From Leucoraja ocellata (Eukaryota), in contig JAWMAR010001141.1 in NCBI GenBank assembly GCA_036785375.1, positions 310,001 to 363,823 of the forward strand: DNA of 53,823 nt. The letters run 5' to 3'. Numbering within the stretch: position 1 is the first letter of the stretch; each line of letters starts with the position of its first letter. Position numbers and translations under genes: made by a program. Shown piece after piece: positions 1,666-52,864 of this stretch. The notes beneath the pieces were generated by a model. It was given only the letters and a program-made list of their open reading frames with translations. It ran no database searches and was not told the DNA's origin.

Positions 1666-2701
1666 GAACCCATTGCTTTGAGTAAAGTGCCAATTAGTTT
1701 GAGGGATACGGTGACTTTCCTTCAGTGGAATTGGACGTCTTAGTTGAGTTTAGTTTAGTTTAGAGATACAGCATGGAAACAGGACCTTTGGCCCACCTAG
1801 TTGATGCCAACCAGCTATCTCCTCTGCACACCAGCACTATCCTGCATACACTAGGGTCAATTTACAATTTTACCAAAGCCAATTAACCTACAAACCTGCA
1901 CGTCTTTGGAGTGTGGGAAGAAACCAAAGATCTCAGAGAAAAGCCACTTGGTCATGGGGAGAACATACAAACTCCGTACAGACAGCACCCGTATCGAACC
2001 CGCGCCCCTGGCGCTGAAATGAACGCAGCAACACCACCGCTGTACACCCGTGCCGCCCTATGTATCATTTATATTTTTGTGTGTCTATGTGTATGTGATG
2101 TTGCCACAAGAGTGATTTTCATTGTATCTGCACCTCACCATACGTGCACATAAGAATGACAGACTTGACTTGAAAACAGCTCAGCAAAGTATATTACAGT
2201 GATGTTCTCATGAGAAAAAGTACTTCCAGAACATTTGATCTGATGGGATGTCATAGCTTATAGTTTCCCTCTTCTAAATATTCTTCACAGTTAAAACCAT
2301 GAGGCATTCCCAGGATTGAATACAATTTATTCCACATAACTGCAATGTCATGCTACACAACACAAAATAATAAGTCATTGCTATAAAGGCTAGCAACATT
2401 GTTTAAATGGCACCTTTACTGAGTGAATATTGTGTAAACTAAGTTAATAATTTTAGCAGAAGAAGCATTAATTCTGTGCAGTCTATTATGAAAGCAAAAT
2501 GAAAAACACTTTGTCAATGCTCTTTATGGGCGACTATTTGCATACCTTGGGTTAGCAAGCAAAGAATTTCACTGTGACTTGTCACACGTGACAATAAAGA
2601 ATTAATTAATTAATTTATTCATTCAAAATAATAATGATCATTTGGTCTTGTTGGAGAGTTGTTTCTCAGTCACTATCACCAGTGGATCTTCATTCTGCCT
2701 T

Positions 2702-2737
2702 CTACGGCAAGCTGTGAGGTTTCGGTTCAATGGGTCC
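2702..2737 (-). CDS. Gene A exon 5, short cytoplasmic tail
   Basis: Poly-T-gcag acceptor, GPIEPKPHSLP*. Two of the three differences seen in B and C are synonymous in this frame. Confidence 0.7.
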   Translation of the reverse strand, partial: GPIEPKPHSLP

Positions 2738-5700
2738 CTGCAAAAAAAAAAATGTTGAAGACATCAGATAATTGACTCCGGGAATTTTGCTTTATTTCAC
2801 AAGGCCACTAACAACAGAATTCTGCTTCCAATTGGCCCAGTGACAGCATCCAAGAATTTGCTTGGATTTTGACTTTGATGCTATCTGTGTGGAGTTTGCA
2901 TGTTCTCGCTGTGTCCATGTGGGTTTCCTCCGCGAGCTCCGGTTTCCTCCGCGAGCTCCGGTTTCCTCCCACCTCCCAAAGACTTGTGGGTTTACTGGTT
3001 AATTGGCCAATGTGAATTTCCCCGAATGTGTTGGGAGTTGGGATGATAGAATGGGATAACATCGAACTAATGCGTACGGGTGATCAATGGCCTGATTGAC
3101 ACAAAGTGATGGAGTAACCCAGCGAGTCTGGCACGATCTCTGGAGAAAAAGGATGGGTGACATTTTAGGTCGGGACCCTTCTTCAAACTGAAAGTAGAGG
3201 GGAGGGAACTGCGTGTCTGGCGGACAGCGGCACCGGGAGCCCGCGGGTCCCTGGAGGGAGACCGCTTTTCAGGGCTCTCGCAACGGCGACTTCTCCCGCC
3301 TGAGTTGCGGGGTCGAAGAGCTCCTGGAGCGGCTTGGAATGGCCGCGGGACTCTGCGAGCGCACGCCGGGGGCTCCAACAACAGGACCCGGTGTGCGACC
3401 TTGCACCACCCGTCGTGGCTTTAATGGCCGCGGGACAATCGCCATCGCCAGCCGGGGGCTTTGACTTTGACTCTGACATCGGGGGGGGGGGGGGGGGGAG
3501 AGTGCAGTGGAGAGATAAGTTTTTTTGGCCTTCCATCACAGCGATGTGATGGATGTTTATGTAAATTATGTTGTGTCTTGGGTCTATTTGTTTGTAATAT
3601 ATGGCTGCAGAAACGGCATTTCGTTTGGACCTCAAGGGGTCCAAATGACAATTAAATTGAATCTTGAATCTTGAATCTTGGGGTTCAGGCAAGATGGTCT
3701 GCGTGGTCACAGTGGGTCAAAGGGCCTGTTTCCATGCTGTATTTCTCTGATTCAATGACACTACAACATCTACATCAAACACTTCAGTTCATTCTGAGCA
3801 CAAACATCTTGTCAAGACCAATTGATATCATCTATGTAGAGCATTGGTTTGGCCTATATTTGTGAAATACTTTATCTAAATGCTTTCCGTTTGTTTAATT
3901 TTATCAGCATGTTTGAAGATATTAATGGACATCATTTGGAAGCATTCAGCAATTCTGATGATCTCCGCAAAACATACCTTCCTTATACTTGTGAACAATG
4001 AGACTGAGATGCTGCAGATCCCAAGCAGAGCGAAGTACAGCCAGCGTCCCACATTCCATATCGTGTAACTGAGCAAAAGGGGAAAGATACAGAATCAGTG
4101 GGAGGAAACAGACTAGTTCGTGTTGGAAACATTCATATCCTGATTGCTGTGAAATATCTGCATGGAGCAGGGTACAGCAACAGAGCCCAGGGAGTTCAGC
4201 TGGGAAATTCCACCGTCCAGGATCTCAACCTGAAACATCACCGATCCATGTTCTTCAGAGATGCTGCCTGACTCGCTGAGTTACTCCAGCATTTTGTGTC
4301 TAGCGTTGATAAATTTAGATAAGAAAAGATGGGAGAAGTGACGAGTGGTATGTAAACACCAGCATGGGATCAGTTCAGTTGATCTTTTCTGTGCCTTAAA
4401 TCCTATGTGATCAGATGCAAGTCTGATTAAACAAAGTTGGAAGATCTCCAATGAGGTAGTTGGGAGGTCAGGATCGCTGGTGAGGGGATGATTCAGTTGC
4501 CTGATAACCGTTGGGAAGAAAATGTCCCTGACTCTGCAGGTGTGCGTTTTCAAACCTCAACTCTACCGCTGCACCACCATGCCACCCTCGACAACCTAGA
4601 GTTACTCCAGTACTTTGTGTTGTACTCAAGGTTCCAGCATCCAGCCAGGTTAATTCCCGGGATGGCGGGACTGTCATATGATGAAAGAATGGAGCGACTG
4701 GGCTTGTATTCACTGGAATTTAGAAGGATGAGAGGGTATCTTATAGACACATATAAAATTATTAAGGGATTGGGCACGTGAGATGCAGGAAACATGTTCC
4801 CGATGTTGGGGGAGTCCAGAACCAGGGGCCACATTTTAAGAATAAGGGGTTGGCCATTTAGAACTGAGACGAGGAAAACCTTTTCACCCAGAGAGGTGGA
4901 AATCTGTGGAATTCTTTGCCTCAGAAGGCAGTGCAGGCCGATTCACTGGATACATTCAAAAGAGAGTTAGATAGAGTTCTTAAAGCTAGCGGAATCAAGG
5001 GATATGGGGACTAGGCAGGAACGGGGTACTGATTGTGGATGGTCAACCATGATCACATTGAATGGCGGTGAATGGCCTACTCCTGCACTATTGTCGATCT
5101 ATCTATGTATCTATGTATGGATCAACAGTTCCTTGTGTCTCCACCTCTCATATTGAAAAGCTAGGCCAATCAAAACTTGAGCAAGTGAAAATTATACCTG
5201 TTAGAGAAACTGGTCGCATGATGATTGTTTTCGGATGTTACTTTTGTAGTTGAAGTAAATGCTACTGTTGTTGTTGTAGACGATTCAGTATTAGATTCAG
5301 GTTCTGTTGAGAAAAGGAAATAAAAGACAATTAAAGATAGACAAAATATGCTGGAGTAACTCAGCGGGACAGGCAGCATCTCTGGAGAGAAGGAATGGGT
5401 GAAGTTTACAATAGAAACATAGAAATTAGGTGCAGGAGTAGGCCATTCGGCCCTTGGAGACTGCACCGCCATTCAATATGATCATGGCTGATCATCCAAC
5501 TCAGTATCCCGTACCTGCCTTCTCTCCATACCCCCTGATCCCCTTAGCCACAAGGGCCACATCTAACTCCCTCTTAATATAGCCAATGAACTGGCCTCAA
5601 CTACCCTCTGTGGCAGAGAGTTCCAGAGATTCACCACTCTCTGTGTGAAAAAAGTTCTTCCCATCTCGGTTTTAAAGGATTTCCCCCTTATCCTTAAGCT

Positions 5701-8700
5701 GTGACCCCTTGTCCTGGACTTCCCTAACATCGGGAACAATCTTCCTGCATCTAGCCTGTCCAACCCCTTAAGAATTTTGTAAGTTTCTATAAGATCCCCT
5801 CTCAATCTCCTAAATTCTAGAGAGTATAAACCAAGTCTATCCAGTCTTTCTTCATTCGGGTCTGAGGACGGGTCTCGGGCCGAAACGTCACCCATTCCTT
5901 CCCTCCAGAGACGCTGCCTGTCCCGCTGAGATACTCCAACATTTCAAGTTCAAGTTCACATATTGTCACATGCACCAATTAAGGTACAGTGGTATTTGAG
6001 TTATCATACAGCCATACAAGTTTAAAAACATAATGCAATACACAATATTTTTAACATAAACATCCACCACAGTGGAATCATCATTCCTCACTGTGATGGA
6101 AGGCAACAAGGTTCACTCATCTTCCTCCTTTGTTTACCCGTGGTGGTCGGGGCCTTGAACCCTCAGCACTGCCACTGCCGACGGCCCGATGTTCAAGCCC
6201 TCTCGTCGGGATGATGGAGACTCCGGCGTCGGGGAGGAACGGAAACACTCCGCGGCTTCACGGTATTAAAGTCCACAAGCCCCGCGGTTGGAGAGCTTCC
6301 ACAGCGATTCTCAGCAAAGGATCACAGCTCCGCAATGTTAAAGTCCGCGTCGCCCTTGCGGCGAAGATCCAGCCCGGTCTCCAGGAAAGGCCGCATCCAT
6401 CCAGTTGTTAGTCCGCGGGGAGGGGACGGAGACGTGACACGGGGAAAGATCACATCTCTGTTGCGGTAAGTGACTGAAAACGGTTTCGCCCCCTCCCCTC
6501 CCCTCCCCTCACCCCCCACATTAAAAAACACAGAGAGACATTAAAACATACATTTTAGACAGACTGACAATAACAAAAAAGTCGAACTAACACACAGGCT
6601 GCTGGCGAGGCTGCCATCTCAGCGCCATCCAGTGACGCATCTATCTGCTCTATAGATTTTGTGTCTATGTTCGATTGAAACAGCATCTGCAGTTCTTTCC
6701 AACACAATAAAAGACATTTCCCTGTTTGCCGTTTCATCATTATTCAAGATCCAGGGGCATCATCTGCACACTCCCATGAGGGGTAAGAACAGAATTCGGC
6801 CAAACAGCAAAGATCCCGGCACTGATCCCTATGGTGCATCATTAAGGGCGGCACGGTGGCGCAGCTGTAGAATTACTGCCTTACAGCGCCAGGGACCCGG
6901 GTTCGATCATGACCACGGGTACTTGTCTGTCTGTCTGTCTGGAGTTTGTACATTCTCCCCCTGACCTGCGTGAGTTTTCTCTGAAAACTTCGGTTTCCCC
7001 CCACACTCCAAACACGTACAGGTTTACAGGTTAATTGGCTTGGTATAAATGTAAAACGTACCGTCAGATACTTGGAGCTGAACGTTAAACAATGGATCCA
7101 AGCCAGATGCATCAATTCCACAGCTGTACCATCCTGTATCGCTAGAGTGAAAATCCTCCACAGTCACAGTAAATTTTCCTTGTGCCGGGTTATCTGTGAT
7201 TGACGCTCTTCCACGTCTGTGTTGCCCATTTGTTTTCACTACAACTGAACACGAGCGAGTCCACCCATGACACCAGTATTTTGTGTGTGAACGGTACCGT
7301 GCTACATAGTAACAATCGATTGTGATATTTTTCCCCACAACTCCTCTTACAGGTGTATTTGCCGTCAGAGCACCTGAAACTGAGAAGAAAAATCATCAGA
7401 ACATGTACAGGACAAATCTACTTAACACAGCGTTTGTTGTCCCATCCACTCATCCCCTAATCAACGATGGGCCGAATGGTCCAACCCGTGTGTGGACATT
7501 CACTTACCCTTGAGCCAAGCACAAAGTGCCCGTGTAACTCAGCAGATCTGGCAGCATCTGTGGAGGGAATGGACACGTGACGTGTCGGGTTGGGACCCTG
7601 CTTCAGACTGATTAAAGTAGGGTGGGGAAAGCTGGAAGAGAGGTGGAGATGGGATAAAGCCTGGCAAGTGACAGGTGGAAGGTAGACACAAATTGCTGGA
7701 GTAACTCAGCGGGACAGGCAGCACAACAAGTGGATACAGATGAGGGGGGAATTTTGACTGGTTCACGAGTGGACAAAGACTGGAGGTGAAAAGCGGTGAA
7801 AAGGTTGTCAGATGAGGAGAGATGAGAAGCGAAATGTAAAGACAGAGGGAGGGGTATATTTGGTAGGGGACAGGGTGAAAGGGAGGAAGAGGCATGGGTT
7901 AAATGGTGCACAGGAAAGTGAGAGAGGGTAGGGGGATGTGCAATGTAAAATTGGAGAATTTAATGATCATAAGATATTTTTCTATTGATTGAATTGATTG
8001 AAAAATACAGCATGGAAAGGTGCCCTTTGGCCCATCGAGTCCTCTTCACACTAAAGATAGACACAAGGTGCTGGAGTAACTCAGCGGGTCAGGCAGCATG
8101 TCTGGAGAAATAGAATGCGTGATGTTTCGGGATTGGGACCCTTCTTCAGACACCCTTCTAAGTTACTCCAGCACTTTGTTTCTATCTTTGGTACAAACCA
8201 GCACCTGCAGTTCTTTGGTCCTAACTGTTTACACCAGTTGGGCAGCACAGTAGCACAGCAGAAGAGTGGCTGCCTTACAGCGCCAAGGACCCGGGTTTGA
8301 TCCTGACTATGGATGCTGAGACACTAGAGACAGGAAACATGTTCCCGATGTTGGGGGAGTCCAGAACCAGGGGCCACAGTTTAAGAATAAGGGGTAAGCC
8401 ATTTAGAACGGAGACAAGGAAACACAGAGAGTTGTGAGTATGTGGAATTCTCTGCCCATTCTCTGGAAACTTGCAAGAGAGAGCTAGATAGGGCTCTTAA
8501 AGATAATAGTTAGGGGATATGGGGAGAAGGCAGGAAAGGGGTACTGATTGGGGATGATCAAGCATGATCGCATTCAATAAACAATGGACAATAGACAATA
8601 GGTGCAGGAGTAGGGCATTTGGCCCTTCGAGCCAGCACCGCCATTCAATGTGATCATGGCTGATCATCTCCGTTCTAAATGGCTTACCCCTTATTCTTAA

Positions 8701-11092
8701 ACTGTAGCTCCTGGTTCTGGACTCCCCCAACATCGGAAACATGTTTCCTGCCTCTAGCGTGACCAAACCCTTAATAATCTTAAAATAATTTTACAATAAT
8801 CTTACATGGCAGTGCTAGCTCGAAGGGCCGAATGGCCTACTCCTGCACCTATTGTCTATTGATGAGTACTGAGGCTTGTGGATCCCTACAACAACCTTAT
8901 CCCCCAAATGCACGTATATCGTTGGCCTGTTTTATGGAGGGTAAACCTTATTTGCCATCATCCCCATCTATAAACAAGGAAATAGTCACCTACACTTCAC
9001 GCTGCCTTGCAAGGCCACCAGCATAATCATGGAGCAGTTTCATCTCAGTCACTCCTTCTTTACCTGTCTACCATTAGGCACGAGGAACAGAAGTTTGAAC
9101 CCAATGCTCTAGATTCAGAGACAGTTTTCTTACCAACTGTTATCAGGCAACTGACCCATCCTCTCAGTAGCTAGAGCGCAGTCCTGGCCTCCTATTTACC
9201 CCCTTGAACAATCAATAATTGGACTTCTTTGGACTAAACTAAACTAAACTAGTAAAGCAATGATACTAGATTACCGGAAATGATCTGGTGAATGAAGACA
9301 GTTAATGTTGGCCTTCACCTGCATCTGAGCATCAGTGATAACATTGAAAAAAAGAATTTACTTGGTAACAATAAATTATTAATATTGCATGCTGATGACT
9401 TTGACAAATATGCATAGTTGATGTCCAAGAACAAGAAGGAAATGGCTACATTGCAAGAGCAACCCACAGCCCAAGAGGAACTGGACGTCAAACAACATCT
9501 GAACTTTAAATAAGAGGAAGTGTTGTAAAATGGAGACAATTGTTTTGGCATTATTGCTTGGCTGCTGTTAGTGAGTGCAAGCAAGCAATAAAACAATGTT
9601 TCATGAATAGACAGGGTCCCTTTGCACTTTGACACCGTTACTTTAGTTTAGTTTAGTTTAAGATAGAGCATGGAAACTGGCCCTTTGGCCCAACGTGACC
9701 GTGCTGACCTAGTATCTTGTACACTAGGGACAATTTACATAGTCCTTATTCCCTATTTTTAGAGGCCAATTAACCTACAAATCTGTGCGTCTTTGGGATG
9801 TGGGAGGAAACCAGGGGACTGGGTAAAAAACCCATGCGGTCACAGGGTGAAAGTGCAAACTCCCTACAGACAGTCCCCTTAGTTAGGATTGAACCCAGGT
9901 CTCTGGTACTGTAAGGCACCGCTGTGCCACTGTCCCAGTCACTTGTAATTGTCTCTGTTTTTCATTCACAGTCGCTTTGTGCTGTCAGATACATTGGCGG
10001 CCATGATTTATGTGTGGCACAGTGATGGAGACAGGAGGAGATTGGAAGACCACACTCTAATATTGAGACAAAAGAGATTGCAGATGCTGGAATCTGGAAC
10101 AACAAACAGCACACTGAAAGGACTCAGTGGGTCATGGAGGTTTGAAGGCAAAAAAGTAAAGTGTAAGTTGTTCTTTCAGATCGAGACCCTGCATCAGGAC
10201 TGAGAGGAGACAGAGATGTTTGGCAACATATAGATGTACTAATGGGTGGGAGGGTTGGGGCTGGTTGAGGAAGATGGAACTGGATGAAGAGGATGTGTTT
10301 GATAGAGAATACACAAGCAGAACATGAGATGTTGATTGATAGTTCAAAACTCAATGGTACAAACATTACATTTTCCAATTTTGGGTAATTCACACCCTCT
10401 GGTGTTCTCCTCACACACAAGCCCACCTGCCGATCCTGATTCAACCTTTCCTGCCTCCCTTGCTCAGTCCCGATACAGGGTCCTCTTCACATTCACAGAT
10501 GCAGGCTGACCCACTGAGTTCCTCTTTCTTGATCCACGCCCCAATATTGTTCAGTTATCTTTACATCTGCAAGCATTTAACTATCTCCACTGCAGAAATG
10601 GTACACAAGACCCAGTTACATTCTGATCACCAAAATGAATATCAAAATAAAACTATGGCGGTTAACAAAATCTAACACGAAAACAAAAAAATAATCAGGT
10701 GGTCAGGGCGCATCTGTGGGGAGAGATAAAGTTAGGTTTTAGGTCGAAGGATCTCTGATCTGAAAGGGTAACTCTTTTTCTCGGCACACCTGCTAAGTAT
10801 TTCCAGCATATGTAAAGGAAGGAACTGCAGATGCTGGTTTACACCGAAGATAGACACAAAATGCTGGAGTAACTCAGAGGGACAGGCAGCATCTCTGGAT
10901 AGAAGGTATGGGTGACATTTCGGGTCGAGACTTTTCTTCAGCCTGTCCCGCTGAGTTACTCCAGCACGTTGTGACTATCTCATACTTCCCGTAGAGTCTG
11001 GTCACATGACCGTCCAAATCAAGCTGTTACTTACCGGGCAGGGAATAAATGAGCAGCATTGGAATCCACATAGTTTTATCCAAGGAGACCAT
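2702..11092 (-). CDS. CD300/pIgR-like (MDIR-like) single-V activating-type receptor, gene A (~202 aa, 5 exons)
   Basis: complement(join(2702..2737,3978..4068,5198..5303,7062..7379,11035..11092)) = 609 nt, open. All introns GT-AG, phases 1,1,2,0. Leader MVSLDKTMWIPMLLIYSLP, V domain, S/T stalk, TM SYTIWNVGRWLYFALLGICSISVSLF, tail GPIEPKPHSLP*. Confidence 0.88.
3211..3680 (+). mobile_element. Unit-A-specific retroposon insertion with a (ttgaatc)n tail
   Basis: Absent in B (gggaact|gggttcag) and C. GC-rich body, poly-G tract and tandem 3' tail. Confidence 0.75.
3978..4068 (-). CDS. Gene A exon 4, transmembrane with Arg
   Basis: YTIWNVGRWLYFALLGICSISVSLFTSIRK. Acceptor ttttgctcag|, donor AAG|gtatgt. 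Confidence 0.88.
4645..5115 (+). mobile_element. CR1 LINE 3' fragment
   Basis: RLIPGMAGLSYDERMERLGLYSLEFRRMRG. Copies near 16480-16965 and 29025-29505. Confidence 0.88.
5198..5303 (-). CDS. Gene A exon 3, Ser/Thr-rich stalk
   Basis: EPESNTESSTTTTVAFTSTTKVTSENNHHATSFSN. Acceptor ttctcaacag|, donor AG|gtataa, phase 1 to 2. Confidence 0.85.
5410..5854 (-). mobile_element. CR1 LINE 3' fragment, inverted relative to 4645-5115
   Basis: ERLDRLGLYSLEFRRLRGDLIETYKIL..RVVNLWNSLPQ. Copies near 17252-17700 and 29800-30248. Confidence 0.88.
5858..5893 (+). ncRNA. Minimal type I hammerhead ribozyme-like motif in a Penelope-derived repeat (copies 17703-17738, 30251-30286)
   Basis: GGGU-CUGAGGA-stem II-GAAACGUC-ACCC. 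Stem I GGGU/ACCC is perfect, stem III is the palindrome ACGU, and stem II is degenerate in this copy. Confidence 0.5.
5945..6630 (-). mobile_element. Non-autonomous retroposon with a (ttgaac)n tail
   Basis: CpG-rich body, variable poly-C tract and tandem tail. Present in all three units. Family not identified. Confidence 0.5.
6846..7045 (+). mobile_element. tRNA-derived V-SINE next to the V-exon donor
   Basis: A box TGGCGCAG, B box GGTTCGATC and V-domain core tggagtttgtacattctcccc. Confidence 0.8.
7062..7379 (-). CDS. Gene A exon 2, V-type Ig domain (CD300/TREM/pIgR type)
   Basis: ITIDC..KYWC..C..DTGWYSC with the extra C-C' Cys pair. Acceptor ttctcag|, donor G|gtacgt, 318 nt. Confidence 0.95.
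9473..9522 (+). promoter_or_regulatory. Candidate intronic PU.1 sites
   Basis: AAGAGGAACT at 9473 and near-consensus AAGAGGAAGTG at 9512-9522. The second site is kept in all units, the first is deleted in C. Confidence 0.3.
11035..11092 (-). CDS. Gene A exon 1, signal peptide
   Basis: ATG at 11092 (alternative 11071), hydrophobic MWIPMLLIYSLP, phase-1 donor G|gtaagt. Confidence 0.85.
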
Positions 11093-14999: not shown

Positions 15000-15035
15000 C
15001 TACGGCAAGCTGTGAGGTTTTGGTTCAATGGGTCC
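15000..15035 (-). CDS. Gene B exon 5, short tail
   Basis: GPIEPKPHSLP* after a poly-T-gcag acceptor. Confidence 0.7.
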   Translation of the reverse strand, partial: GPIEPKPHSLP

Positions 15036-18000
15036 CTGCAAAAAAAAAACTTAGAAGTCATCAGATAATTGACTCTGGGAATTGTGCTGTATTTCACAAT
15101 GCCACTAACAACAGAATTCTGCTTCCAATTGGCACAGTGATGCAGCTGATAGAGCTGCTGCCTCCCAGCGTCCAAGAATTTGCTTGGATTTTGACTTTGA
15201 TGCTATCTGTGTGGAGTTTGCATGTTCTCGCTGTGTCCATGTGGGTTTCCTCCGCGAGCTCCGGTTTCCTCCCACCTCCCAAAGACTTGTGGGTTTACAG
15301 GTTAATTGGCCAGTGTGAATTTCCCCTAGTGTGTTGGGAGTTGGGATGAGAGAATGGGATAACATCGAACTAATGCGTACAGGTGATCAATGGCCTGATC
15401 GGCACAAAGTGCTGGAGTAACCCAGCGAGTCTGGCGCGATCTCTGGAGAAAAAGAATGGGTGATATTTCTGGTCGGGACCCTTCTTCAAACTGAAAGTAG
15501 AGGAGAGGGAACTGGGTTCAGATGAGATGGTCTGCGTTTGTTACAGTGGGTCAAAGGGCCTGTTTCCCAGTTGTTTTTCTCTGATTCAATGACACTACAA
15601 CATCTACATCAAACACTTAATTTCATTCTGAGCACAAACATCTTGTCAAGACCAATTGATATCATCTTCGTAGAGCATTGGTTTGGCCTATATTTGTGAA
15701 GTACTTTATCTAAACGCTTTCCGTTTGTTTAATTTTATCAGCATGTTTGAAGGTGTTAATGGACATCATTTGGAAGCATTCAGCGATTCTGATGATCTCC
15801 GCAAAACATACCTTCCTTATACTTGTGAACAATGAGACTGAGATACTGCAGATCCCAAGCAGAGCGAAGTACAGCCAGCGTCCCACATTCCATATCATGT
15901 AACTGAGCAAAAGGGGAAAGATACAGAATCAGTAGGAGGAAACAGACTAGTTCGTGTTGGAAACATTCATAGCCTGATTGTTGTGAAATCTCTGCATGGA
16001 GCAGGGTACAGCAACAGAGCCCAGGGAGTTCAGCTGGGAAATTCCACCATCCAGGATCTCAAACTGAATCCTCACCTATCCATGTTCTTCAGAGATGCTG
16101 CCTGACTCGCTGAGTTACTCCAGCATTTTGTGTCTAGCGTTGATAAAGTTAGATAAGAAAAGATGGGAGAAGTGACGAGTAGTATGTAAACACCAACATG
16201 GGATCAGTTCAGTTGATCTTTTCTGTGCCTTAAATCCTATGTGATCAGATGCAAGTCTGATGAAACAAAGTTGGAACATCTCCAATGAGGTAGATGGGAG
16301 GTCAGGATCGCTGGTGAGGGGATGATTCAGTTGCCTGATAACCGTTGGGAAGAAAATGTCCCTGACTCTGCAGGTGTGCGTTTTCAAACCTCAACTCTAC
16401 CGCTGTACCACCATGCCACCCTCGACAACCTAGAGTTACTCCAGTACTTTATGTTGTACTCAAGGTTCCAGCATCCAGCCAGGTTAATTCCCGGGATAGC
16501 GGGACTGTCATATAATGAAAGAATGGAGCGACTGGGCTTGTAGTCACTGGAATTTATAAGGATGAGAGGGTATCTTATAGACACATATAAAATTATTAAG
16601 GGATTGGGCACGTGAGATGCAGGAAACATGTTCCCGATGTTGGGGGAGTCCAGAACCAGGGGCCACAGTTTAAGAATAAGGGGTAGGCCATTTAGAACTG
16701 AGACGAGGAAAACCTTTTCACCCAGAGAGGTGTGAATCTGTGGAATTCTTTGCCTCAGAAGGCAGTGCAGGCCGATTCACTGGATACATTCAAAAGAGAG
16801 TTAGATAGAGTTTTTAGGGCTAGCGGAATCAAGGGATATGGGGACAAGGCAGGAACGGGGTACTGATTGTGGATGGTCAACCATGATCACATTGAATGGC
16901 GGTGCTGGCTCGAAGGGCAGAATGGCCTCCTCCTGCACTATTGTCGATCTATCTATGTATCTATGTATGGATCAACAGTTCCTTGTGTCTCCACCTCTCA
17001 TATTGAAAACAAGGCCAATCAAAACTTGAGCAAGTGAAAATTATACCTGTTAGAGAAACTGGTCGCACGATCATTGTTTTCGGATGTTACATTTGTAGTT
17101 GAAGTAAATGCTACTGTTGTTGTAGACGATCCAGGATTAGATTCGGGTTCTGTTGAGAAAAGGAAATAAAAGAATTAAAGATAGACAAAATATGCTGGAG
17201 TAACTCATCGGGACAGGCAGCATGTCTGGAGAGAAGGAATGGGTGAAGTTTAGAATAGAAACATAGAAATTACGTGCAGGAGTAGGCCATTCGGCCCTTC
17301 GAGACTGCACCGCCATTCAATATGATCATGGCTGATCATCCAACTCAGTATCCCGTACCTGCCTTCTCTCCATACCCCCTGATCCCCTTAGCCACAAGGG
17401 CCACATCTAACTCCCTCTTAAATATAGCCAATGAACTGGCCTCAACTGCCCTCTGTGGCAGAGAGTTCCAGAGATTCACCACTCTCTGTGTGAAAAAAGT
17501 TCTTTTCATCTCGGTTTTAAAGGATTTCCCCCTTATCCTTAAGCTGTGACCCCTTGTCCTGAACTTCCCTAACATCGGGAACAATCTTCCTGCATCTAGC
17601 CTGTCCAACCCCTTAAGAATTTTGTAAGTTTCTATAAGATCCCCTCTCAATCTCCTAAATTCTAGAGAGTATAAACCAAGTCTATCCAGTCTTTCGTCAT
17701 TCGGGTCTGAGGATGGGTCTCGGGCCGAAACGTCACCCATTCCTTCCCACCAGAGACGCTGCCTGTCCCGCTGAGATACTCCAACATTTCAAGTTCATGT
17801 TCGCATATTGTCACGTGCACCAATTAAGGTACAGTGGTATTTGAGTTATCATACAGCCACAAGTTTAAAAACATAACGCAATACACAATAGTTCTAACAT
17901 AAACATCCACCACAGTGGAATCATCATTCCTCACTGTGATGGAAGGCAACAAGGTTCAGTCATCTTCCTCCTTTGTTTACCCGTGGTGGTCGGGGCCTTG

Positions 18001-21000
18001 AACCCTCAGCACTGCCACTGCCGACGGCCCGATGTTCAAGCCCTCTCGTCGGGATGATGGAGGCTCCGGCGTCGGGGAGGAACGGAAACACTCCGCGGCT
18101 TCACGGTATTAAAGTCCACAAGCCCCGCGGTTGGAGAGCTTCCACAGCGATTCTCAGCAAAGGATCACAGCTCCGCAATGTTAAAGTCCGCGTCGCCCTT
18201 GCGGCGAAGATCCAGGCCAGTCTCCAGGAAAGGCCGCATCCATCCAGTTGTTAGTCCGCGGGGAGGGGACGGAGACGTGACACCGGGAAAGATCACATCT
18301 CTGTTGCGGTAAGTGACTGAAAACGGTTTCGCCCTCCCCTCACCCCCCCCCCCCCCCCCCTCACCCCCCCTCCCCTCCCCTCACCCCCCACATTAAAAAA
18401 CACAGAGAGACATTAAAACATACATTTTAGACAGACTGAAAATAACAAAAAAGTCGAAATAACACACAGGCTGCTGGCGAGGCTGCCATCTCGGCGCCAC
18501 CCAGTGACGCATCTATCTGCTCTATAGATTTTGTGTCTATGTTCGATTAAAACAGCATCTGCAGTTCTTTCCAACACAATAAAAGACATTTCCCTGTTTG
18601 CCGTTTCATCATTATTCAAGATCCAGGGGCATCATCTGCACACTCCCAGGAGGGGTAAGAACAGAATTCGGCCAAACAGCAAAGATCCCGGCACTGATCC
18701 CTATGGTGCATCATTAAGGGCGGCACGGTGGCGCAGTTGTAGAATTACTACCTTACAGCGCCAGGGACCCGGGTTCGATCATGACCACGGGTACTTGTCT
18801 GTCTGTCTGGAGTTTGTACATTCTCCCCCTGACCTGCGTGAGTTTTCGCTGAAAACTTCGGTTTCCCCCCACACTCCAAAGACGTACAGGTTTACAGGTT
18901 AATTGGCTTGGTATAAATGTAAAACGTACCGTCAGATACTTGGAGCTGAACGTTAAACATTGGATCCAAGCCAGATGCATCAATTCCACAGCTGTACCGT
19001 CCTGTATCGTAAGAGTGAAGATCCTCCACAGTCACAGTAAATATTGCTCGTGCCGGGTTATCTGTGATTGACCATCTTCCACGTCTGTGTTGCCCATTTG
19101 TTTTCACTACATCTGAACACGAGCGAGTCCACCCATGACACCAGTATTTTGTGTGTGAACGGTACCATGTTCCATAGTGACAATCGATTGTGATATATTT
19201 CCCCACAACTCCTCTTACAGGTGTCTTTGCCGTCAGAGCACCTGAAACTGAGAAGAAAAATCATCAGAACATGTACAGGACAAATCTACTTAACACAGCG
19301 TTTGTTGTCCCATCCACTCTTCCCCTAATCAACGATGGGCCGAATGGTCCAACCCGTGTGTGGACATTCACTTACCCTTGAGCCAAGCACAAAGTGCCCG
19401 TGTAACTCAGCAGATCTGGCAGCATCTGTGGAGGGAATGGACACGTGACGTGTCGGGTTGGGACCCTGCTTCAGACTGATTAAAGTAGGGTGGGGAAAGC
19501 TGGAAGAGAGGTGGAGATGGGATAAAGCCTGGCAAGTGACAGGTGGAAGGTAGACACAAATTGCTGGAGTAACTCAGCGGGACAGGCAGCATAACAAGTG
19601 TTTGGTGGATACAGATGAGGGGGAAATTTTGACTGGTTCACGAGTGGACAAAAACTGGAGGTGAAAAGCGGTCAAAAGGTTGTCAGATAAGGACGGAAGA
19701 GAACCGAAATGTAAAGACAGAGGGAGGGGTATATTTGGTAGGGGACAGGGTGAAAGGGAGGAAGAGGCATGGATTAAATGGTGCACAGGAAAGTGAGAGA
19801 GGGTAGGGGGGTGTGCAACGTAAAATTGGAGAATTTAATGATCATAAGATATTTTTCTATTGATTGAATTGATTGAAAAATACAGCATGGAAAGACGCCC
19901 TTTGGCCCACCGAGTCCTCTTCACACTAAAGATAGACACAAGGTGCTGGAGTAACTCAGCGGGTCAGGCAGCATGTCTGGAGAAATAGAATGCGTGATGT
20001 TTCGGGATTGGGACTTTTCTTCAGACACCCTTCTAAGTTACTCCAGCACTTTGTTTCTATCTTTGGTACAAACCAGCACCTGCAGTTCTTTGGCCCTAAC
20101 TGTTTACACTAGTTGGGCAGCACAGTAGCACAGCAGAAGAGTGGCTGCCTTACAGCGCCAAGGACCCGGGTTTGATCCTGACTATGGATGCTGCCTGTAC
20201 AGAATTTGTACGTTCTCCCTGTGACCGCATGGGTTTCCTCTGTGTGTTCCAGTTTCCTCCCACAATCCAAACATGAGTAGGTTTGTAAGTTAATTGGCTT
20301 CTGTAAATTACCCCAAGGGTGTAGGATAGAACTGGTGCACGGGTAATCGTTGGTCGGCTTGGACATTGTGGGCCGAAGGGCCTGTTCAAGGCTGTATCTC
20401 TAAAACTAACTAATTGTCTTATTGCATTTAATGAGCTGTGAGAATATTCCCCAAGGTCCTTCTGTTCGTCCACACTCCCTCAACATCCATATATTAATGT
20501 CTTTATTTAGACCTCTTTGTCAAATGTAATTCCTCTCACTTCTCTGGATTAAACTGGCTTTGCCACTTTTCTGCCCTACTGGTTTGTTCATCCATATACG
20601 CCCTGGGGTCAAAAGCCTTCTCCTCCCTGTCAACCATCCAGCTGACCTTTGTCTCATCTGCAGAGGACTTCACCACGCCCCCTACATTTATCTACATAGA
20701 TGATTCTTGCTATTGAGGGAGTGCAGCGTAGGTTTACAAGGTTAATTCCTGGGATGGCGGGACTGTCATATGCTGAGAGAATGGAGCAGCTGGGCTTGTA
20801 CACTCTGGAACTTAGGATGAGAGGGGATCTTATTGAAACATGTAAGATTATTAAGGGTTTGGACACACTAGAGACAGGAAACATGTTCCCGATGTTGGGG
20901 GAGTCCAGAACCAGGGGCCACAGTTTAAGAATAAGGGGTAAGCCATTTAGAACGGAGACAAGGAAACACTGAGAGTTGTGAGTATGTGGAATTCTCTGCC

Positions 21001-23634
21001 CATTCTCTGGAAACTTGCAAGAGAGAGCTAGATAGGGCTCTTAAAGATAATAGGTAGGGGATATGGGGAGAAGGCAGGAAAGGGGTACTGATTGGGGATG
21101 ATCAAGCATGATCGCATTCAATAAACAATAGACAATAGGTGCAGGAGTAGGGCATTTGGCCCTTCGAGCCAGCACCGCCATTCAATGTGATCATGGCTGA
21201 TCATCTCCGTTCTAAATGGCTTACCCCTTATTCCTAAACTGTGGCTCCTGGTTCTGGACTCCCCCAACATCGGAAACATGTTTCCTGACTCTAGCGTGTC
21301 CAAACCCTTAATAATCTTAAAATAATTTTACAATAATCTTACAATAATCTTACATGGCAGTGCTGGCTCGAAGGGCCGAATGGCTTACTCCTGTACCTAT
21401 TGTCTATTGATGAGTACTGAGGCTTGTGCATCCCTACAACAACCTTATCCTCCAAATGCACGTATATCGTTGGCCTGTTTTATGGAGGGTAAACCTTATT
21501 TGCCATCTTTCCCATTTATAAACAAGGAAATAGTCACCTACACTTCACGCTGCCTTGCAAGGCCACCAGCATAATCATGGAGCACTTTCATCCCAGTCAC
21601 TCCTTCTTTACCTGTCTACCATTAGGCACGAGGGTCAGAAGTTTGAACCCAATGCTCTAGATTCAGAGACAGTTTTCTTCCCAACTGTCTTCAGGCAACT
21701 GACCCATCCTCTCACTAGCTAGAGCGCAGTCCTGACCTCCTATTTACCCCCTTGAACGATCAATAATTGGACTTCATTGGACTAAACTAAACTAAACTAG
21801 TATAGCAATGATCCTAGATTACCGGAAATGATCTAGTGAATGAAGACAGTCAATGTTGGCCTTCATCTGCATCTGAGCATCAGTGATAACATTGAAAAAA
21901 AAAATTAACTTGGTAACAATAAATTATTAATATTGCATGCTGATGACTTTGACAAATATACATAGTTGACATCCAAGAACAAGAAGGAAATGGCTACATT
22001 GCAAGAGCAACCCACAGCCCAAGAGGAACTGGACGTCAAACAATATCTGAACTTTAAATAAGAGGAAGTGTTGTAAAATGGAGACAATTGTTTTGGCATT
22101 ATTGCTTGGCTGCTGTTAGTGAGTGCAAGCAAGCAATAAAACAATGTTTCATGAATAGAAAGGGTCCCTTTGCACTTTGACACTGTTAGTTTATTTTAGT
22201 TTAGTTTAAGATGGAGCATGGAAACTGGCCCTTCGGCCCAACTTGTCCGTGCTGACCTAGTATCTTGTACACTAGGGACAATTTACATAGTCCATATTCC
22301 CTATTTATAGAGGCCAATTAACCTACAAACACATGTGTCTTTGGGGTGTGGGAGGAAACCAGAGGACTGGGAAAAAACCCATGCGGTCACAGGGAGAAGG
22401 TACTAACTCCATACAGACAGGTCCCTTAGTCAGGATCGAACCCAGATCTCTGGTACTGTAATGCACCGCTGTGCCACTGTCCCAGTCACTTGTAATTGTC
22501 TCTGTTTTTCATTCACAGTCGCTTTGTGCTGTCAGATACATTGGCGGCCATGATTTATGTGTGGCACAGTGATGGAGACAGGAGGAGATTGGAAGACCAC
22601 ACTCTAATATTGAGACAAAAGAGATTGCAGATGCTGGAATCTGGAACAACAAACAGCACACTGGAAGGACTCAGTGGGTCATGGAGGTTTGAAGGCAAAA
22701 AAGTGTAAGTCGTTCTTTCAGATCGAGACCCTGCATCAGGACTGAGAGGGGACAGAGTTGTTTGGCAACATATAGATGTACTAATGGGTTGGAGGGTTGG
22801 GGCTGGTTGAGGAAGATGGAACTGGATGAAGAGGATGTGTTTGATAGAGAATACACAAGCAGAACACAAGATGTTGATTGATAGTTCAAAACTCAATGGT
22901 ACAAACATTACATTTTCCAATTTTGGGTAATTCACACCCTCTGGTGTTCTCCTCCCACACAAGCCCACCTGCCGATCCTGATTCAACCTTTCCTGCCTCC
23001 CTTGCTCAGTCCCGATACAGGGTCCTCTTCACGTACACAGATGCTGGCTGACCCGCTGAGTTCCTCTTTCTTGATCCACGCCCCAATATTGTTCAGTTAT
23101 CTTTACATCTGCAAGCATTTAATTATCTCCACTGCAGAAATGGTGCACAAGACCCAGATACATTCTGATCACCAAAATGAATATCAAAATAAAACTACGG
23201 AGGTTAACAAAATCTAACACGAAACCAAAAAAATAATCAGGTGGTCAGGGCGCATCTGTGGGGAGAGATAGAGTTAGGTTTTAGGTCGAAGGATCTCTGA
23301 TCTGAAAGGGTAACTCTTTTTCTTGGCACACCTGCTAAGTATTTCCAGCATATGTAAAGGAAGGAACTGCAGATGCTGGTTTACACCGAAGATAGACACA
23401 AAATGCTGGAGTAACTCAGAGGGACAGGCAGCATCACTGGATAGAAGGTATGGGTGACATTTCGGGTCGAGACTTTTCTTCAGCCTGTCCCGCTGAGTTA
23501 CTCCAGCACGTTGTGACTATCTCGTACTTCCCGTAGAGTCTGGTCACATGACCGTCCAAATCAAGCTGTTACTTACCGGGCAGGGAATACATGAGTAGCA
23601 TTGGAATCCACATAGTTTTATCCAAGGAGACCAT
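15000..23634 (-). CDS. CD300/pIgR-like (MDIR-like) single-V activating-type receptor, gene B (~201 aa)
   Basis: complement(join(15000..15035,15812..15902,17047..17149,18930..19247,23577..23634)) = 606 nt, open, splice sites intact. Confidence 0.88.
15812..15902 (-). CDS. Gene B exon 4, transmembrane with Arg
   Basis: YMIWNVGRWLYFALLGICSISVSLFTSIRK. Confidence 0.88.
17047..17149 (-). CDS. Gene B exon 3, stalk
   Basis: EPESNPGSSTTTVAFTSTTNVTSENNDRATSFSN, 103 nt. Confidence 0.85.
18930..19247 (-). CDS. Gene B exon 2, V-type Ig domain
   Basis: VSGALTAKTP..IDCHYGTWYRSHTKYWCHGWTRSC..DTGRYSC, 318 nt. Confidence 0.95.
20115..20410 (+). mobile_element. Full-length V-SINE (also 33086-33381, truncated by deletion in unit A at ~8318)
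   Basis: tRNA-like head, V core and tail ggccgaagggcctg..tgtatctctaaa. Confidence 0.8.
20698..21400. mobile_element. CR1 3' fragment with an internal inverted CR1 piece (also ~8320-8860 and ~33669-34385)
   Basis: The plus strand encodes ILAIEGVQRRFTRLIPGMAGLSYAER, and a reverse-oriented copy lies at ~21120-21320. Confidence 0.8.
23577..23634 (-). CDS. Gene B exon 1, signal peptide
   Basis: MVSLDKTMWIPMLLMYSLP, donor G|gtaagt. Confidence 0.85.
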
Positions 23635-27544: not shown

Positions 27545-27580
27545 CTACGGCAAGCTGTGAGGTTTCGGTTCATTAGGTCC
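27545..27580 (-). CDS. Gene C exon 5, short tail
   Basis: GPNEPKPHSLP*. Confidence 0.7.
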   Translation of the reverse strand, partial: GPNEPKPHSLP

Positions 27581-30500
27581 CTGCAAAAAAAAATGTTTGA
27601 AGTCATCAGATAATTGACTCCGGGAATTGTGCTTTATTTCACAAGGCCACTAACAACAGAATTCTTGTTCCAATTGGCACAGTGATGCAGCTGATAGAGC
27701 TGCTGCCTCCCAACGTCCAAGAATTTGCTTGGATTTTGACTTTGATGCTATCTGTGTGGAGTTTGCATGTTCTCGCTGTGTCCATGTGGGTTTCCTCCGC
27801 GAGCTCCGGTTTCCTCCCACCTCCCAAAGACTTGTGGGTTTCCAGGTTAATTGGCCAGTGTGAATTTCCCCTAGTGTGTTGGGAGTTGGGATGAGAGAAT
27901 GGGATAACATCAAACTAATGCGTACGGGTGATCAATGGCCTGATCGGCACAAAGTGCTGGAGTAACCCAGCGAGTCTGGCACGATCTCTGGAGAAAAAGG
28001 ATGGGTGACATTTCAGGTCGGGACCCTTCTTCAAACTGAAAGTAGAGGGGAGGGAATTGGGTTCAGATAAGATGGTCTGCGCTTGTTACAGTGGGTCAAA
28101 GGGCCTGTTTCCCAGTTGTATTTCTCTGATTCAATGACACTACAACATCTACGTCAAACACTTCAGTTCATTCTGCACACACACATCTTGTCAAGACCAA
28201 TTGATATCATCTTCGTAGAGCATTGGTTTGGCCTATATTTGTGAAGTACTTTATCTAAACGCTTTTCGTTTGTTTTATTTTATCAGCATGTTTGAAGGTA
28301 TTAATGGACAGCATTTGGAAGCATTCAGCGATTCTGATGATCTCCGCAAAACATACCTTCCTTATACTTGTGAACAATGAGACTGAGATGCTGCAGATCC
28401 CAAGCAGAGCGAAGTACAGCCAGCGTCCCACATTCCATATCATGTAACTGAGCAAAAGGGGAAAGATACAGAATCAGTAGGAGGAAACAGACTAGTTCGT
28501 GTTGGAAACATTCATAGCCTGATTGTTGTGAAATCTCTGCATGGAGCAGGGTACAGCAACAGAGCCCAGGGAGTTCAGCTGGGAAATTCCACCATCCAGG
28601 ATCTCAACCTGAAACCTCACCTATCCATGTTCTTCAGAGATGCTGCCTGACTAGCTGAGTTACTCCAGCATTTTGTGTCTAGCGTTGATAAAGTTAGATA
28701 AGAAAAGATGGGAGAAGTGACGAGTGGTATGTAAACACCAGCATGGGATCAGTTCAGTTGATCTTTTCTGTGCCTTAAATCCTATGTGATCAGATGCAAG
28801 TCTGATGAAACAAAGTTGGAAGATCTCCAATGAGGTAGATGGGAGGTCAGGATCGCTGGTGAGGGGATGATTCAGTTGCCTGATAACCGTTGGGAAGAAA
28901 ATGTCCCTGACTCTGCAGGTGTGCGTTTTCAAACTTCAACTCTACCGCTGCACCACCATGCCACCCTCGACAACCTAGAGTTACTCCAGTACTTTGTGTT
29001 GTACTCAAGGATCCAGCATCCAGCCAGTTTAATTCCCGGGATGGCGGGACTGTCATATGATGAAAGAATGGAGCGACTGGGCTTGTATTCACTGGAATTT
29101 AGAAGGATGAGAGGGTATCTTATAGACACATATAAAATTATTAAGGGATTATTAAGGGACACGTGAGATGCAGGAAACATGTTCCCGATGTTGGGGGTGT
29201 CCAGAATCAGGGGCCACAGTTTAAGAATAAGGGGTAGGCCATTTAGAACTGAGACGAGGAAAACCTTTTCACCCAGAGAGTTGCGAATCTGGGGAATTCT
29301 TTGCCTCAGAAGGCAGTGCAGGCTGAATCACTGGATACACTCAAAAGAGAATTAGATAGAGTTCTTAGGGCTAGCGGAATCAAGGGATATGGGGACAAGG
29401 CAGGAACGGGGTACTGATTGTGGATGGTCAACCATGATCACATTGAATGGCAGTGCTGGCTCGAAGGGCAGAATGGCCTACTCCTGCACTATTGTCTATC
29501 TATCTATGTATGGATCAACAGTTCCTTGTGTCTCCACCTCTCATATTGAAAACAAGGCCAATCAAAACTTGAGCAAGTGAAAATTATACCTGTTAGAGAA
29601 ACTGGTGGCATGATCATTGTTTTCGGATGTTACTTTTGTAGTTGAAGTAAATGCTACTGTTGTTGTTGTTGACGATCCAGGATTAGGTTCAGGTTCTGTT
29701 GAGAAAAGGAAATAAAAGACAATTAAAGATAGACAAAATATGCTGGAGTAACTCAGCGGGACAGGCAGCATCTCTGGAGAGAAGGAATGGGTGAAGTTTA
29801 GAATAGAAACATAGAAATTAGCTGCAGGAGTAGGCCATTCAGCCCTTCGAGACTGCACCGCCATTCAATATGATCATGGCTGATCATCCAACTCAGTATC
29901 CCGTACCTGCCTTCTCTCCATACCCCCTGATCCCCTTAGCCACAAGGGCCACATCTAACTCCCTCTTAAATATAGCCAATGAACTGGCCTCAACTACCCT
30001 CTGTGGCAGAGAGTTCCAGAGATTCACCACTCTCTGTGTGAAAAAAGTTCTTCTCATCTCGGTTTTAAAGGATTTCCCCCTTATCCTTAAGCTGTGACCC
30101 CTTGTCCTGGACTTCCCTAACATCGGGAACAATCTTCCTGCATCTAGCCTGTCCAACCCCTTAGGAATTTTGTAAGTTTCTATAAGATTCCCTCTCAATC
30201 TCCTACATTCTAGAGAGTATAAACCAAGTCTATCCAGTCTTTCGTCATTCGGGTCTGAGGATGGGTCTCGGGCCGAAACGTCACCCATTCCTTCCCTCCA
30301 GAGACGCTGCCTGTCCCGCTGAGATACTCCAACATTTCAAGTTCAAGTTCACATATTGTCACGTGCACCAATTAAGGTACAGTGGTATTTGAGTTATCAT
30401 ACAGCCATACAAGTTTAAAAACATAACGCAATACACAATAGTTTTAACATAAACATCCACCACAGTGGAATCATCATTCCTCACTGTGATGGAAGGCAAC

Positions 30501-33500
30501 AAGGTTCAGTCATCTTCCTCCTTTGTTTACCCGTGGTGGTCGGGGCCTTGAACCCTCAGCACTGCCACTGCCGACGGCCCGATGTTCAAGCCCTCTCGTC
30601 GGGATGATGGAGACTCCGGAGTCGGGGCGGAACGGAAACTCTCCGCGGCTTCACGGTATTAAAGTCCGCAAGCCCCGCGGTTGTAGAGCTTCCACAGCGA
30701 TTCTCAGCAAAGGATCACAGCTCCGCAATGTTAAAGTCCGCGTCGCCCTTGCGGCGAAGCTCCAGCCCGGTCTCCAGGAAAGGCCGCATCCATCCAGTTG
30801 TTAGTCCGTGGGGAGGGGACGGAGACGTGACACGGGGAAAGATCACATCTCTGTTGCGGTAAGTGACTGAAAACGGGTTCGCCCCCCCCTCCCCTCCGCT
30901 CACCCCCCCTCACCTCACCTCCCCTCACCCCCCTCCCCTCCCGTCACACCCCACATGAAAAAAACAAAGAGAAACATTAAAACATACATTTTAGACAGAC
31001 TGAAAATAACAAAAAAGTCGAAATAACACACAGACTGCTGGCGAGGCTGCCATCTCGGCGCCACCCAGTGACGCATCTATATTATCTATAGATTTTGTGT
31101 CTATGTTCGATTAAAACAGCATCTGCAGTTCATTCCTCCACAATAAAAGACATTTCCCTGTTTGCCGTTTCATCATTATTCCAGATCCAGGGGCATCATC
31201 TGCACACTCCCAGGAGGGGTAAGAACAGAATTCGGCCAAAGCTCAAAGATCCCGGCACTGATCCCTATGGTGCATCATTAAGGGCGGCACGGTGGCGCAG
31301 CTGTAGAATTGCTGCCTTACAGCGCCAGGGACCCGGGTTCGATCATGACCACGGGTACTTGTCTGTCTGTCTGTCTGGAGTTTGTACATTCTCCCCCTGA
31401 CCTGCTTGGGTTTTCTCTGAAAACTTCGGTTTCCCCCCCACACTCCAAAGACGTACAGGTTTACAGGTTAAGGTTCAAGAACCAAGCTGACCTCCCGGTG
31501 GCTCAGCACTTCAACTCCCCCTCCCACTCCGTCTCCGACCTCTCTGTCCTGGGTCTCCTCCATGGCCACAGCGAGCAGCACCGGAAATTGGAGGAACAGC
31601 ACCTCATATTCCGTTTGGGGAGTCTGCACCCCGGGGGCATGAACATCGAATTCTCCCAATTTTGTTAGTCCTTGCTGTCTCCTCCCCTTCCTCAGCCCCC
31701 CCCCCCCCCGCTGTCTCCTCCCATCCCCCAGCCTTCTGGCTACTCCTCCTTTTCCCTTTCATGTCCCCACCCACCCCCGCCCCCGATCAGTCTGAAGAAG
31801 GGTTTCGGCCCGAAACGTTGCCTATTTCCTTCGCTCCATAGATGCTGCTGCACCCGCTGAGTTTCTCCAGCTTTTTTGTGTAACCCAGGTTTACAGGTTA
31901 ATTGGCTTGGTATAAATGTAAAACGTACCGTCAGATACTTGGACCCGAACGTTAAACATTGGATCCAAGCCAGATGTATCAATTCCACAGCTGTACCGTC
32001 CTGTATCGCTAGAGAGAAGACCCTCCACAGTCACAGTAAATATTCCTTGTGTCGAGTTATCTGTGATTGACCCTCTTCCACTCCGTCCGTGTTGCCCATT
32101 TGTTTTCACTACATCTGAACACGAGTTAGTCCACCCATGACACCAGTATTTTGTATGTGAACGGTACCAGACTTCATAGTGACAATCGATTGTGATATCT
32201 TTTCCCACAACTCCTCTTACATATTTCTCTGCCCACAGAGCACCTGAAACTGAGAAGAAAAATCATCAGAACATGTACAGGACAAATCTACTTAACACAG
32301 CGTTTGCTGTCCCACCCACTCTTCCCCTAATCAACGATGGGCCGAATGGTCCAACCCGTGTGTGGACATTCACTTACCCTTGAGCCAAGCACAAAGTGCC
32401 CGTGTAACTCAGCAGATCTGGCAGCATCTGTGGAGGGAATGGACACGTGACCTGTCGGGTTTGGACCCTGCTTCAGACTGATTAAAGTAGGGCGGGGAAA
32501 GCTGGAAGAGAGGTGGAGATGGGATAAAGCCTGGCAAGTGACAGGTGGAAGGTAGACACAAATTGCTGGAGTAACTCAGCAGGACAGGCAGCACAACAAG
32601 TGGATACAGATGAGGGGGGAATTTTGACTGGTTCACGAGTGGACAAAGACTGGAGGTGAAAAGCGGTCAAAATTTTGTCAGATAAGGAGAGAAGAGAAAC
32701 GACATGTAAAGACAGAGGGAGAGGTATATTTGGCAGTGGACAGGGTAGAAAGGGAAGAATATGCATGGGTTCAATGGTGGGGGATGTGCAACGTAAAATT
32801 GGCGAATTTAATGATCATAAGATATTTTTCTATTGATTGAACTGATTGAAAAATACAGCATGGAAAGATGCCCTTTGGCCCATCGAGTCCTTTTCACTAA
32901 AGATAGACACAAGGTGCTGGAGTAACTCAGCGGGTCAGGCATCATGTCTGGAGAAATAGAATGCGTGATGTTTCGGGATTGGGACTTTTCTTCAGACACC
33001 CTTCTAAGTTACTCCAGCACTTTGTTTCTATCTTTGGTACAAACCAGCACCTGCAGTTCTTTGGTCCTAACTGTTTACACTAGTTGGGCAGCACAGTAGC
33101 ACAGCAGAAGAGTGGCTGCCTTACAGCGCCAAGGACCCGGGTTTGATCCTGACTATGGATGCTGCCTGTACAGAATTTGTACGTTCTCCCTGTGACCGCA
33201 TGGGTTTCCTCTGTGTGTTCCAGTTTCCTCCCACAATCCAAACATGAGTAGGTTTGTAAGTTAATTGGCTTCTGTAAATTACCCCAAGGGTGTAGGATAG
33301 AACTGGTGCACGGGTAATCGTTGGTCGGCTTGGACATTGTGGGCCGAAGGGCCTGTTCAAGGCTGTATCTCTAAAACTAACTAATTGTCATATTGCATTT
33401 AATGAGCTGTGAGAATATTCCCCAAGGTCCTTCTGTTCCTCCACACTCCCTCAACATCCATATATTAATGTCTTTATTTAGACCTCTTTGTCAAATGTAA

Positions 33501-52423: not shown

Positions 52424-52864
52424 CTGAAGGAAACATCTTTGATAAATTGAAGAGAAAAAGTAGCCTTTCACAAACATACACATTATAGTATACATCAATG
52501 TGTACAGGGGAGTCCGCCCAATCATTTTCTTAACTGTGCTCAATTCCACATAGATTGCGATGAGAGACAGATACTGTACACCGTCCCTCACCATCTGCAC
52601 AGGTCGTTCCAAAGCGCTTCCCAGCCAATGTGGGTGTGAATGGTGAAGAATGATGCATTGAACATGGAGCCTGTTGCAATTGGAAGGCGCTGTCTAGGGA
52701 GTGTTGGTGAGTTGCTGCAGTTCATCGTGCAGATGGTGCAAACTGCTGCTGCTGCTGCTGCTGCTCTGCATCAGCGGGGGAGGTTGAGGATGGAGTGTCT
52801 ATCAAGCGCGATTCTGGGTTATGACAGACCAAGCACAAGTGTTTAGCGAAACTGTGGCCTAGGC

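Follow-up and report, generated by a model that had tools for sequence, protein, structure and literature searches.

Three tandem receptor genes in DNA of the skate Leucoraja ocellata each combine a V-type ectodomain with an arginine at the outer end of the transmembrane (TM) segment, which raises the question of the partner through which they would signal and of whether their anchor belongs with the NxxR anchors of LRC receptors. The window, that is, the whole stretch of 53,823 nucleotides analysed here, was scanned in six frames, and three copies of the anchor motif were detected, all on the minus strand, with starts at 4067, 15901 and 28446. The copy at 4067 (gene A) is SYTIWNVGRWLYFALLGICSISVSLFTSIRK, while those of genes B (15901) and C (28446) begin with SYMIWNVGRW, in agreement with the original prediction, in which the motif had been read as SYTIWNVGRWL for gene A and as SYMIWNVGRWL for the other two genes. 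The position given there for the motif, 3978..4068, is exactly the 91-nt TM exon of gene A, bounded by AG and GT. This exon (4068-3978, minus strand) is entered in phase 2 and left in phase 0, and the intron splits a Ser codon.

Genes A, B and C each consist of five exons (leader, V, Ser/Thr stalk, TM and tail); their splice sites are canonical, and their reading frames stay open over 202-204 aa. The exons of gene A, all on the minus strand, are the leader (11035..11092), matching the N-terminus of P0076; the Ig V exon (7062..7379), CD300/pIgR-like and assigned to the MDIR family by its V-set class, PDB matches and MDIR similarity; the Ser/Thr-rich stalk (5198..5303), running from phase 1 to 2 and also present in P0075; the TM exon (3978..4068), encoding YTIWNVGRW, 20 uncharged residues and RK; and the tail (2702..2737), encoding 11 residues and a stop, as in P0075 and P0076. 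The tail exon is 36 nt long and free of tyrosine in each of the three genes. Gene B (15000..23634, minus strand; 202 aa, open) has exons 23634-23577, 19247-18930, 17149-17047, 15902-15812 (TM, YMIWNVGRW) and 15035-15000, and gene C (27545..36364, minus strand; 204 aa, open) has exons 36364-36307, 32249-31929, 29695-29590, 28447-28357 (TM, YMIWNVGRW) and 27580-27545. The gene model is supported by the matches of P0075 and P0076 to parts of these genes. P0075, 191 aa long and encoded on a 1028-nt Logan contig, has leader, V, stalk, TM and tail in the same order, an arrangement that implies splicing of such a transcript in a close relative, and P0076, an Amblyraja model, has the same TM and tail. 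When contigs of four sequencing runs were compared with window positions 2500-7500, no splice joint was found among the matches listed, and these contigs resemble genomic DNA.

The tandem units carrying the three genes are about 12.5 kb each and 93-96% identical, so that A, B and C count as one recent event and not as independent observations. The V exons of A (7062-7379) and B (18930-19247) differ at 17 non-synonymous and 0 synonymous sites (P about 0.011), and the same comparison was not significant for A-C and B-C. Genes A, B and C are intact, recently duplicated MDIR members with a predicted activating role. The last intron of gene A holds an insertion of a high-copy repeat of about 470 bases (window 3214-3681), absent from B and C. 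A fourth MDIR-type V exon (52106..52436, minus strand; acceptor position provisional) shares 80% DNA identity with gene A and resembles the second V domain of MDIR5. No TM exon of the A/B/C type lies between it and gene C in the window, so it may be a fragment or may splice to other exons.

The ectodomain had been predicted to be CD300-like, and this was borne out. The V exon was classed as V-set, and its best single-domain PDB matches were CD300/CLM (E 1e-19), followed by pIgR domain 1, TIM, NKp44 and TREM2. The V exons of A, B and C encode four Cys, including a pair after the C-strand Trp, and matched CLM-1 and CD300 in the PDB. Mammalian CD300/CLM and pIgR/FCAMR/FCMR likewise have V-set domains with four Cys and both activating and inhibitory members. 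In an atlas comparison, whole P0110 fell with CMRF35/pIgR-like clusters, and the TM region gave a sub-threshold lead (0.80) to a chordate TREM-like cluster. Over the whole domain, the V exon is 64-68% identical to Rostroraja MDIR2 (P0090), MDIR3 (P0031) and MDIR5 (P0064), and a Leucoraja protein shares 97% identity with one of the V exons of contig C70. Among 108 database matches of the V exon, 107 were from sharks or rays or, in the case of P0075, close to the window sequence; the one bony-fish match seen, P0108, carries a Lys and not an anchor of the A/B/C type. A V-profile search returned no bony vertebrate among the best 120 of 146 matches, all of which were elasmobranch. The clearnose skate MDIR proteins resemble A/B/C in the V domain and include paired members bearing ITIM-like motifs. 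MDIR5 also shares the anchor type Y-x-x-W-x-V-G-R-W and a short tail, although it has K at -3 (counted from the arginine at 0), where A/B/C have N, and the A/B/C tail is shorter. The deposited MDIR have several V and C2 domains, in contrast to the one V domain and Ser/Thr stalk of A/B/C. One Rhinoraja model, P0101, in which a TRIM-type N-terminus precedes an MDIR V domain with its Arg anchor, is probably a read-through.

Conservation of the anchor was determined in 141 database proteins, left from 145 after removal of one repeat protein and three isoforms. From these, 57 anchor segments, 49 of them distinct, were picked on downstream residues alone, with the position of the arginine not used. 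Arg was found in all 57, and in 50/50 segments of another set also picked without that position; among the TM exons of the skate's own genome, 30 of 36 were read, and the codon was CGC in 30/30. The distinct database anchors have W at -4 in 46/49, Y at -7 in 29/49, T at -6 in 1/49 and D at -8 in 0/49. The -3 residue is far more variable, being K in 19, S in seven, D in seven, N in six, A in four and T in two, with four singletons; in the 30 own-genome exons it is E in 16, K in six and N in eight. Two of these eight N-type exons have Thr at -6, which is one base from Met. The full Y-T-x-x-N-x-x-R occurs in 0/49 distinct database anchors and 2/30 own-genome exons, and Y-x-x-x-N-x-x-R in 6/49. 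Conservation of the arginine is therefore far beyond chance (57/57), that of the full Y-T-x-x-N-x-x-R is not, and the family motif is W-x-V-x-R-W. The low-entropy positions W-4, R0, F+4 and L+7 share one helix face, with conservation at +1 to +8 partly built into the pattern used for picking. Shark anchors carry N, D or S at -3 in 11/12 and Ile at -1 in 10/12, and N at -3 occurs in the genera Mustelus, Stegostoma and Pristiophorus. A TM tree (35 rows, 44 columns; 18/32 forks open) contains a Rhinoraja member of the A/B/C subfamily with K at -3, and N retained is not separated there from N regained. The Mustelus anchor (P0006 999-1040), used as the query of a region search, gave four candidates, none of which scored. 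A second subfamily on C70 (4.78-4.92 Mb) keeps W-x-V-x-R-W without the Y or N. Its loci (L046-L057, L066-L083) are genes with several V domains, in which the extra Cys pair is missing, and include five W-G-V-L-R-W anchors and one uncharged anchor.

The arginine was also found to be associated with the type of tail. The last TM segment could be classified in 86/116 database homologues: 42/45 proteins with an Arg anchor lacked an ITIM-like motif (one exception being a fused gene model), and 38/41 with an uncharged anchor had one. Judged by its sequences, MDIR is a paired activating and inhibitory receptor family. We consider it probable, at about 0.7, that the activating MDIR receptors dock through their membrane-edge arginine on FcR-gamma or CD3-zeta and act like NxxR receptors. 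Ligand binding by the V domain would cluster the receptor, the arginine would dock on the aspartate pair of the FcR-gamma or CD3-zeta dimer, and the borrowed ITAMs would signal through Syk/ZAP-70 with a predicted activating output. On this view the working unit would be formed by the arginine and the conserved helix face on which it lies (W-4, R0, F+4, L+7), and the T and N would have no part in it.

The choice of adaptor follows published rules. According to Feng et al. (PMC1440944), partners of FcR-gamma have an Arg in the N-terminal TM segment and partners of DAP12 a central Lys, and adaptor-docking sites arise easily by point mutation. The Arg that had been placed at the TM's outer end was confirmed there, together with a short tail without tyrosine, and by these rules it would point to FcR-gamma or CD3-zeta over DAP12. 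The Pfam zeta/gamma TM model placed two exons of the genome over the cut-off. One is an FcR-gamma TM exon with intact Cys and Asp at G000:C201, which makes coupling of A/B/C to FcR-gamma or CD3-zeta likely in our analysis. The other is a CD3-zeta-like TM exon (L032; G000:C175, about 2976731-2976830, minus strand) that is one base short in the assembly, leaving its two halves in different frames; the missing base is probably an assembly error. Coupling of A/B/C to DAP12 or DAP10, as in mammalian TREM and some CD300 members, would suit a CD300/TREM-type ectodomain, yet the TM segments hold no mid-TM Lys or acidic residue, the preference of DAP12 being for a central Lys (PMC1440944), and a family search for DAP10, a test that does not imply absence, had no match in the genome. 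We regard this coupling as very improbable. FcR-gamma use by a CD300-type receptor is already known, since CD300C signals through FcR-gamma via a TM Glu (PMC12447643), and both this Glu and the mid-TM Lys of DAP12 partners are unlike the Arg anchor of A/B/C. Catfish LITR 2.6b is described as binding FcR-gamma-L with Lys or without charge (PMC4810170), so charge rules drawn from mammals need not hold for fish receptors.

The depth of the arginine bears on whether it touches a partner at all. In A/B/C the most hydrophobic stretch of 19 residues begins two residues past the Arg, and the 20 uncharged residues that follow the Arg are sufficient alone to span the bilayer. From Arg to the first cytoplasmic basic residue there are 19 residues in the family and 21 in A/B/C, against 16 from the Asp in skate FcR-gamma, and for this reason Arg may be interfacial. 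By hydropathy it lies at the membrane edge, with its depth uncertain. An AlphaFold2 model of P0075 places motif and TM in one 32-residue helix (148-179), with pLDDT 74-91 over 151-170 and a mean of 56, and does not fix the depth of Arg. This model gave no support to the idea that Asn caps the helix. When the TM exon was modelled together with a pair of FcR-gamma TM exons from the skate, the complex had an uninformative score of 0.02. The arginine could instead be a snorkelling interfacial residue that sets topology or self-association, the receptors being adaptor-free decoys, adhesion or uptake receptors, or using another partner. Besides the hydropathy, which puts Arg just outside the core, this would fit Trp-Arg-Trp, a typical membrane-interface signature. 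The abstract of the 2006 MDIR paper, moreover, reportedly lists MDIR5 without activating or inhibitory motifs. A luminal Arg in 57/57 segments, including the divergent second subfamily without Y and N, nevertheless fits partner contact better, and the arginine is tied to ITIM-less tails and shares its helix face with W-4, F+4 and L+7; we therefore consider a purely interfacial role unlikely.

The original prediction further held that the anchor is an LRC-style Y-T-x-x-N-x-x-R module, and this part was not supported. With Asn in 6/49, Thr in 1/49 and the full motif in 0/49 database anchors, the family departs from the NxxR type, in which Asn is invariant, and N is found in only 8/30 of the own-genome exons. 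The DYT start and acidic C-end described for LRC anchors (PMC6557307) are absent: the start reads S-Y-T in A and S-Y-M in B and C, and no acidic residue lies at the TM C-end of A/B/C. Of 43 anchors, 15 carry E or D at +20, a position beyond the first basic residue. LILRA, CD89, GPVI, OSCAR, NKp46, TARM1 and Xenopus XFL TM1, ILR and SLAM-like receptors share with A/B/C an Arg at the outer TM end, and the likeness extends to Tyr seven residues before Arg, a short signal-less tail, pairing with ITIM receptors and a literal NxxR. The ectodomains are of C2 type in NxxR receptors and of V type in A/B/C. Xenopus NxxR receptors, including XFL TM1, encode TM and tail in one exon according to PMC2413239, unlike the separate 91-nt TM and 36-nt tail exons of A/B/C. 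The conserved flanking Trp of A/B/C, W-4, is absent from the LRC features described in the available parts of PMC6557307 and PMC2413239. A/B/C thus fail most membership features of the NxxR anchor type.

A common origin can still be proposed, in which one TM exon of the ancestral jawed vertebrate was shuffled between V-type and C2-type families and gave both the MDIR anchor and the NxxR anchor of LRC and Xenopus receptors. The spacing is the same, with R at 0 and Y at -7 (29/49), and NxxR anchors are already common to the LRC, FCRL and SLAM families, as given in PMC6557307 and PMC4536121. Shark anchors come nearer to the 'QNLIR' of CD89 (PMC13107469), having N, D or S at -3 and Ile at -1 in the proportions given above, and N at -3 in three shark genera. 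Against this stand the scarcity of N and T, the W-4 and the separate tail exon. A 30-column TM profile searched against 1.84 billion proteins gave 16 matches, 15 elasmobranch and one repeat, and none from a bony vertebrate or LRC receptor, although so short a profile is a weak test for remote matches; the same short profile had 0 matches in the PDB at E<=10. Three LRC-type DNA patterns, of low sensitivity, had 6, 1 and 36 matches in this genome against 4, 5 and 61 for reversed-pattern controls, with no TM exon among the matches read (6/6, 1/1 and 30/36). One candidate LRC-type TM start, L045, proved to be a retrotransposon RNase H motif. We hold the shared ancestral exon to be doubtful, and only tentatively suggest that the MDIR anchor could be a cartilaginous-fish survivor of the docking exon of LRC, Xenopus FCRL and SLAM receptors, with Y-x-x-W-N/D-V-I-R as its shark form. 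We prefer to class the A/B/C anchor as a W-x-V-x-R-W type specific to MDIR, which would work like the LRC NxxR anchor and may or may not share its origin.

An NxxR anchor common to LRC receptors, Xenopus FCRL and SLAM families and chicken ggFcR is described in the available portions of PMC2413239, PMC6557307 and PMC4536121, and the sharing of this anchor among receptor families by shuffling is already published, so the broader idea should hold little surprise for a specialist. These portions make no mention of cartilaginous fish or CD300 with the NxxR anchor. The MDIR family is mentioned in PMC3031540, and extension of an NxxR-type anchor to MDIR was not found in the literature searched, a scope outside which the original MDIR description lies. 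Docking on FcR-gamma or CD3-zeta would be a likely means of activation for about half the members, MDIR5 among them, of this large and little-studied family of shark and ray receptors. The MDIR anchors also form a natural allelic series, keeping Arg and carrying K, E, D, S, N, A or G at -3. This series bears on the role of polar residues one turn above the CD89 Arg: a 2026 review (PMC13107469) notes that the CD89 complex has no structure and that the Gln/Asn above the Arg has had no direct test. Were the common origin true, the docking module would date to the last common ancestor of jawed vertebrates, on a CD300/pIgR-type ectodomain, and the K/E/D/S/N series at -3 would test the role of Asn.

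Matches in the skate's own genome were concentrated in one region. The V matches, 131 in number, are confined to C70 (3.87-4.92 Mb) and C1141, as are 35/36 TM-exon matches (3.87-4.69 Mb on C70). The MDIR cluster is thus a large multigene cluster with activating-type members, the ITIM-type members having been counted in database homologues. The mammalian CD300 synteny is the TTYH2/NHERF1 region, and the human PIGR region has IL10-like and PFKFB neighbours. C70 carries a weak IL10-family match and PFKFB exons at 8.28-8.33 Mb, 3.4 Mb from the cluster, and SARG adjoins PFKFB on C1929. Tweety, an LRC neighbour (PMC6557307), was found on C48, C2644 and C20, and NHERF on C20, C519 and C1343, with none on C70 or C1141 in this contig-level assembly. 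IL10-like and PFKFB, not Tweety or NHERF, thus share the cluster contig; this hints at linkage of the MDIR cluster with the PIGR-syntenic region and does not establish orthology to CD300 proper. Part of C70 (4.6-4.92 Mb) recurs in reverse on C1141, which may be a second haplotype of that region. There are six N-type TM exons on C1141 and two on C70, a haplotype difference in copy number or a collapse in the assembly.
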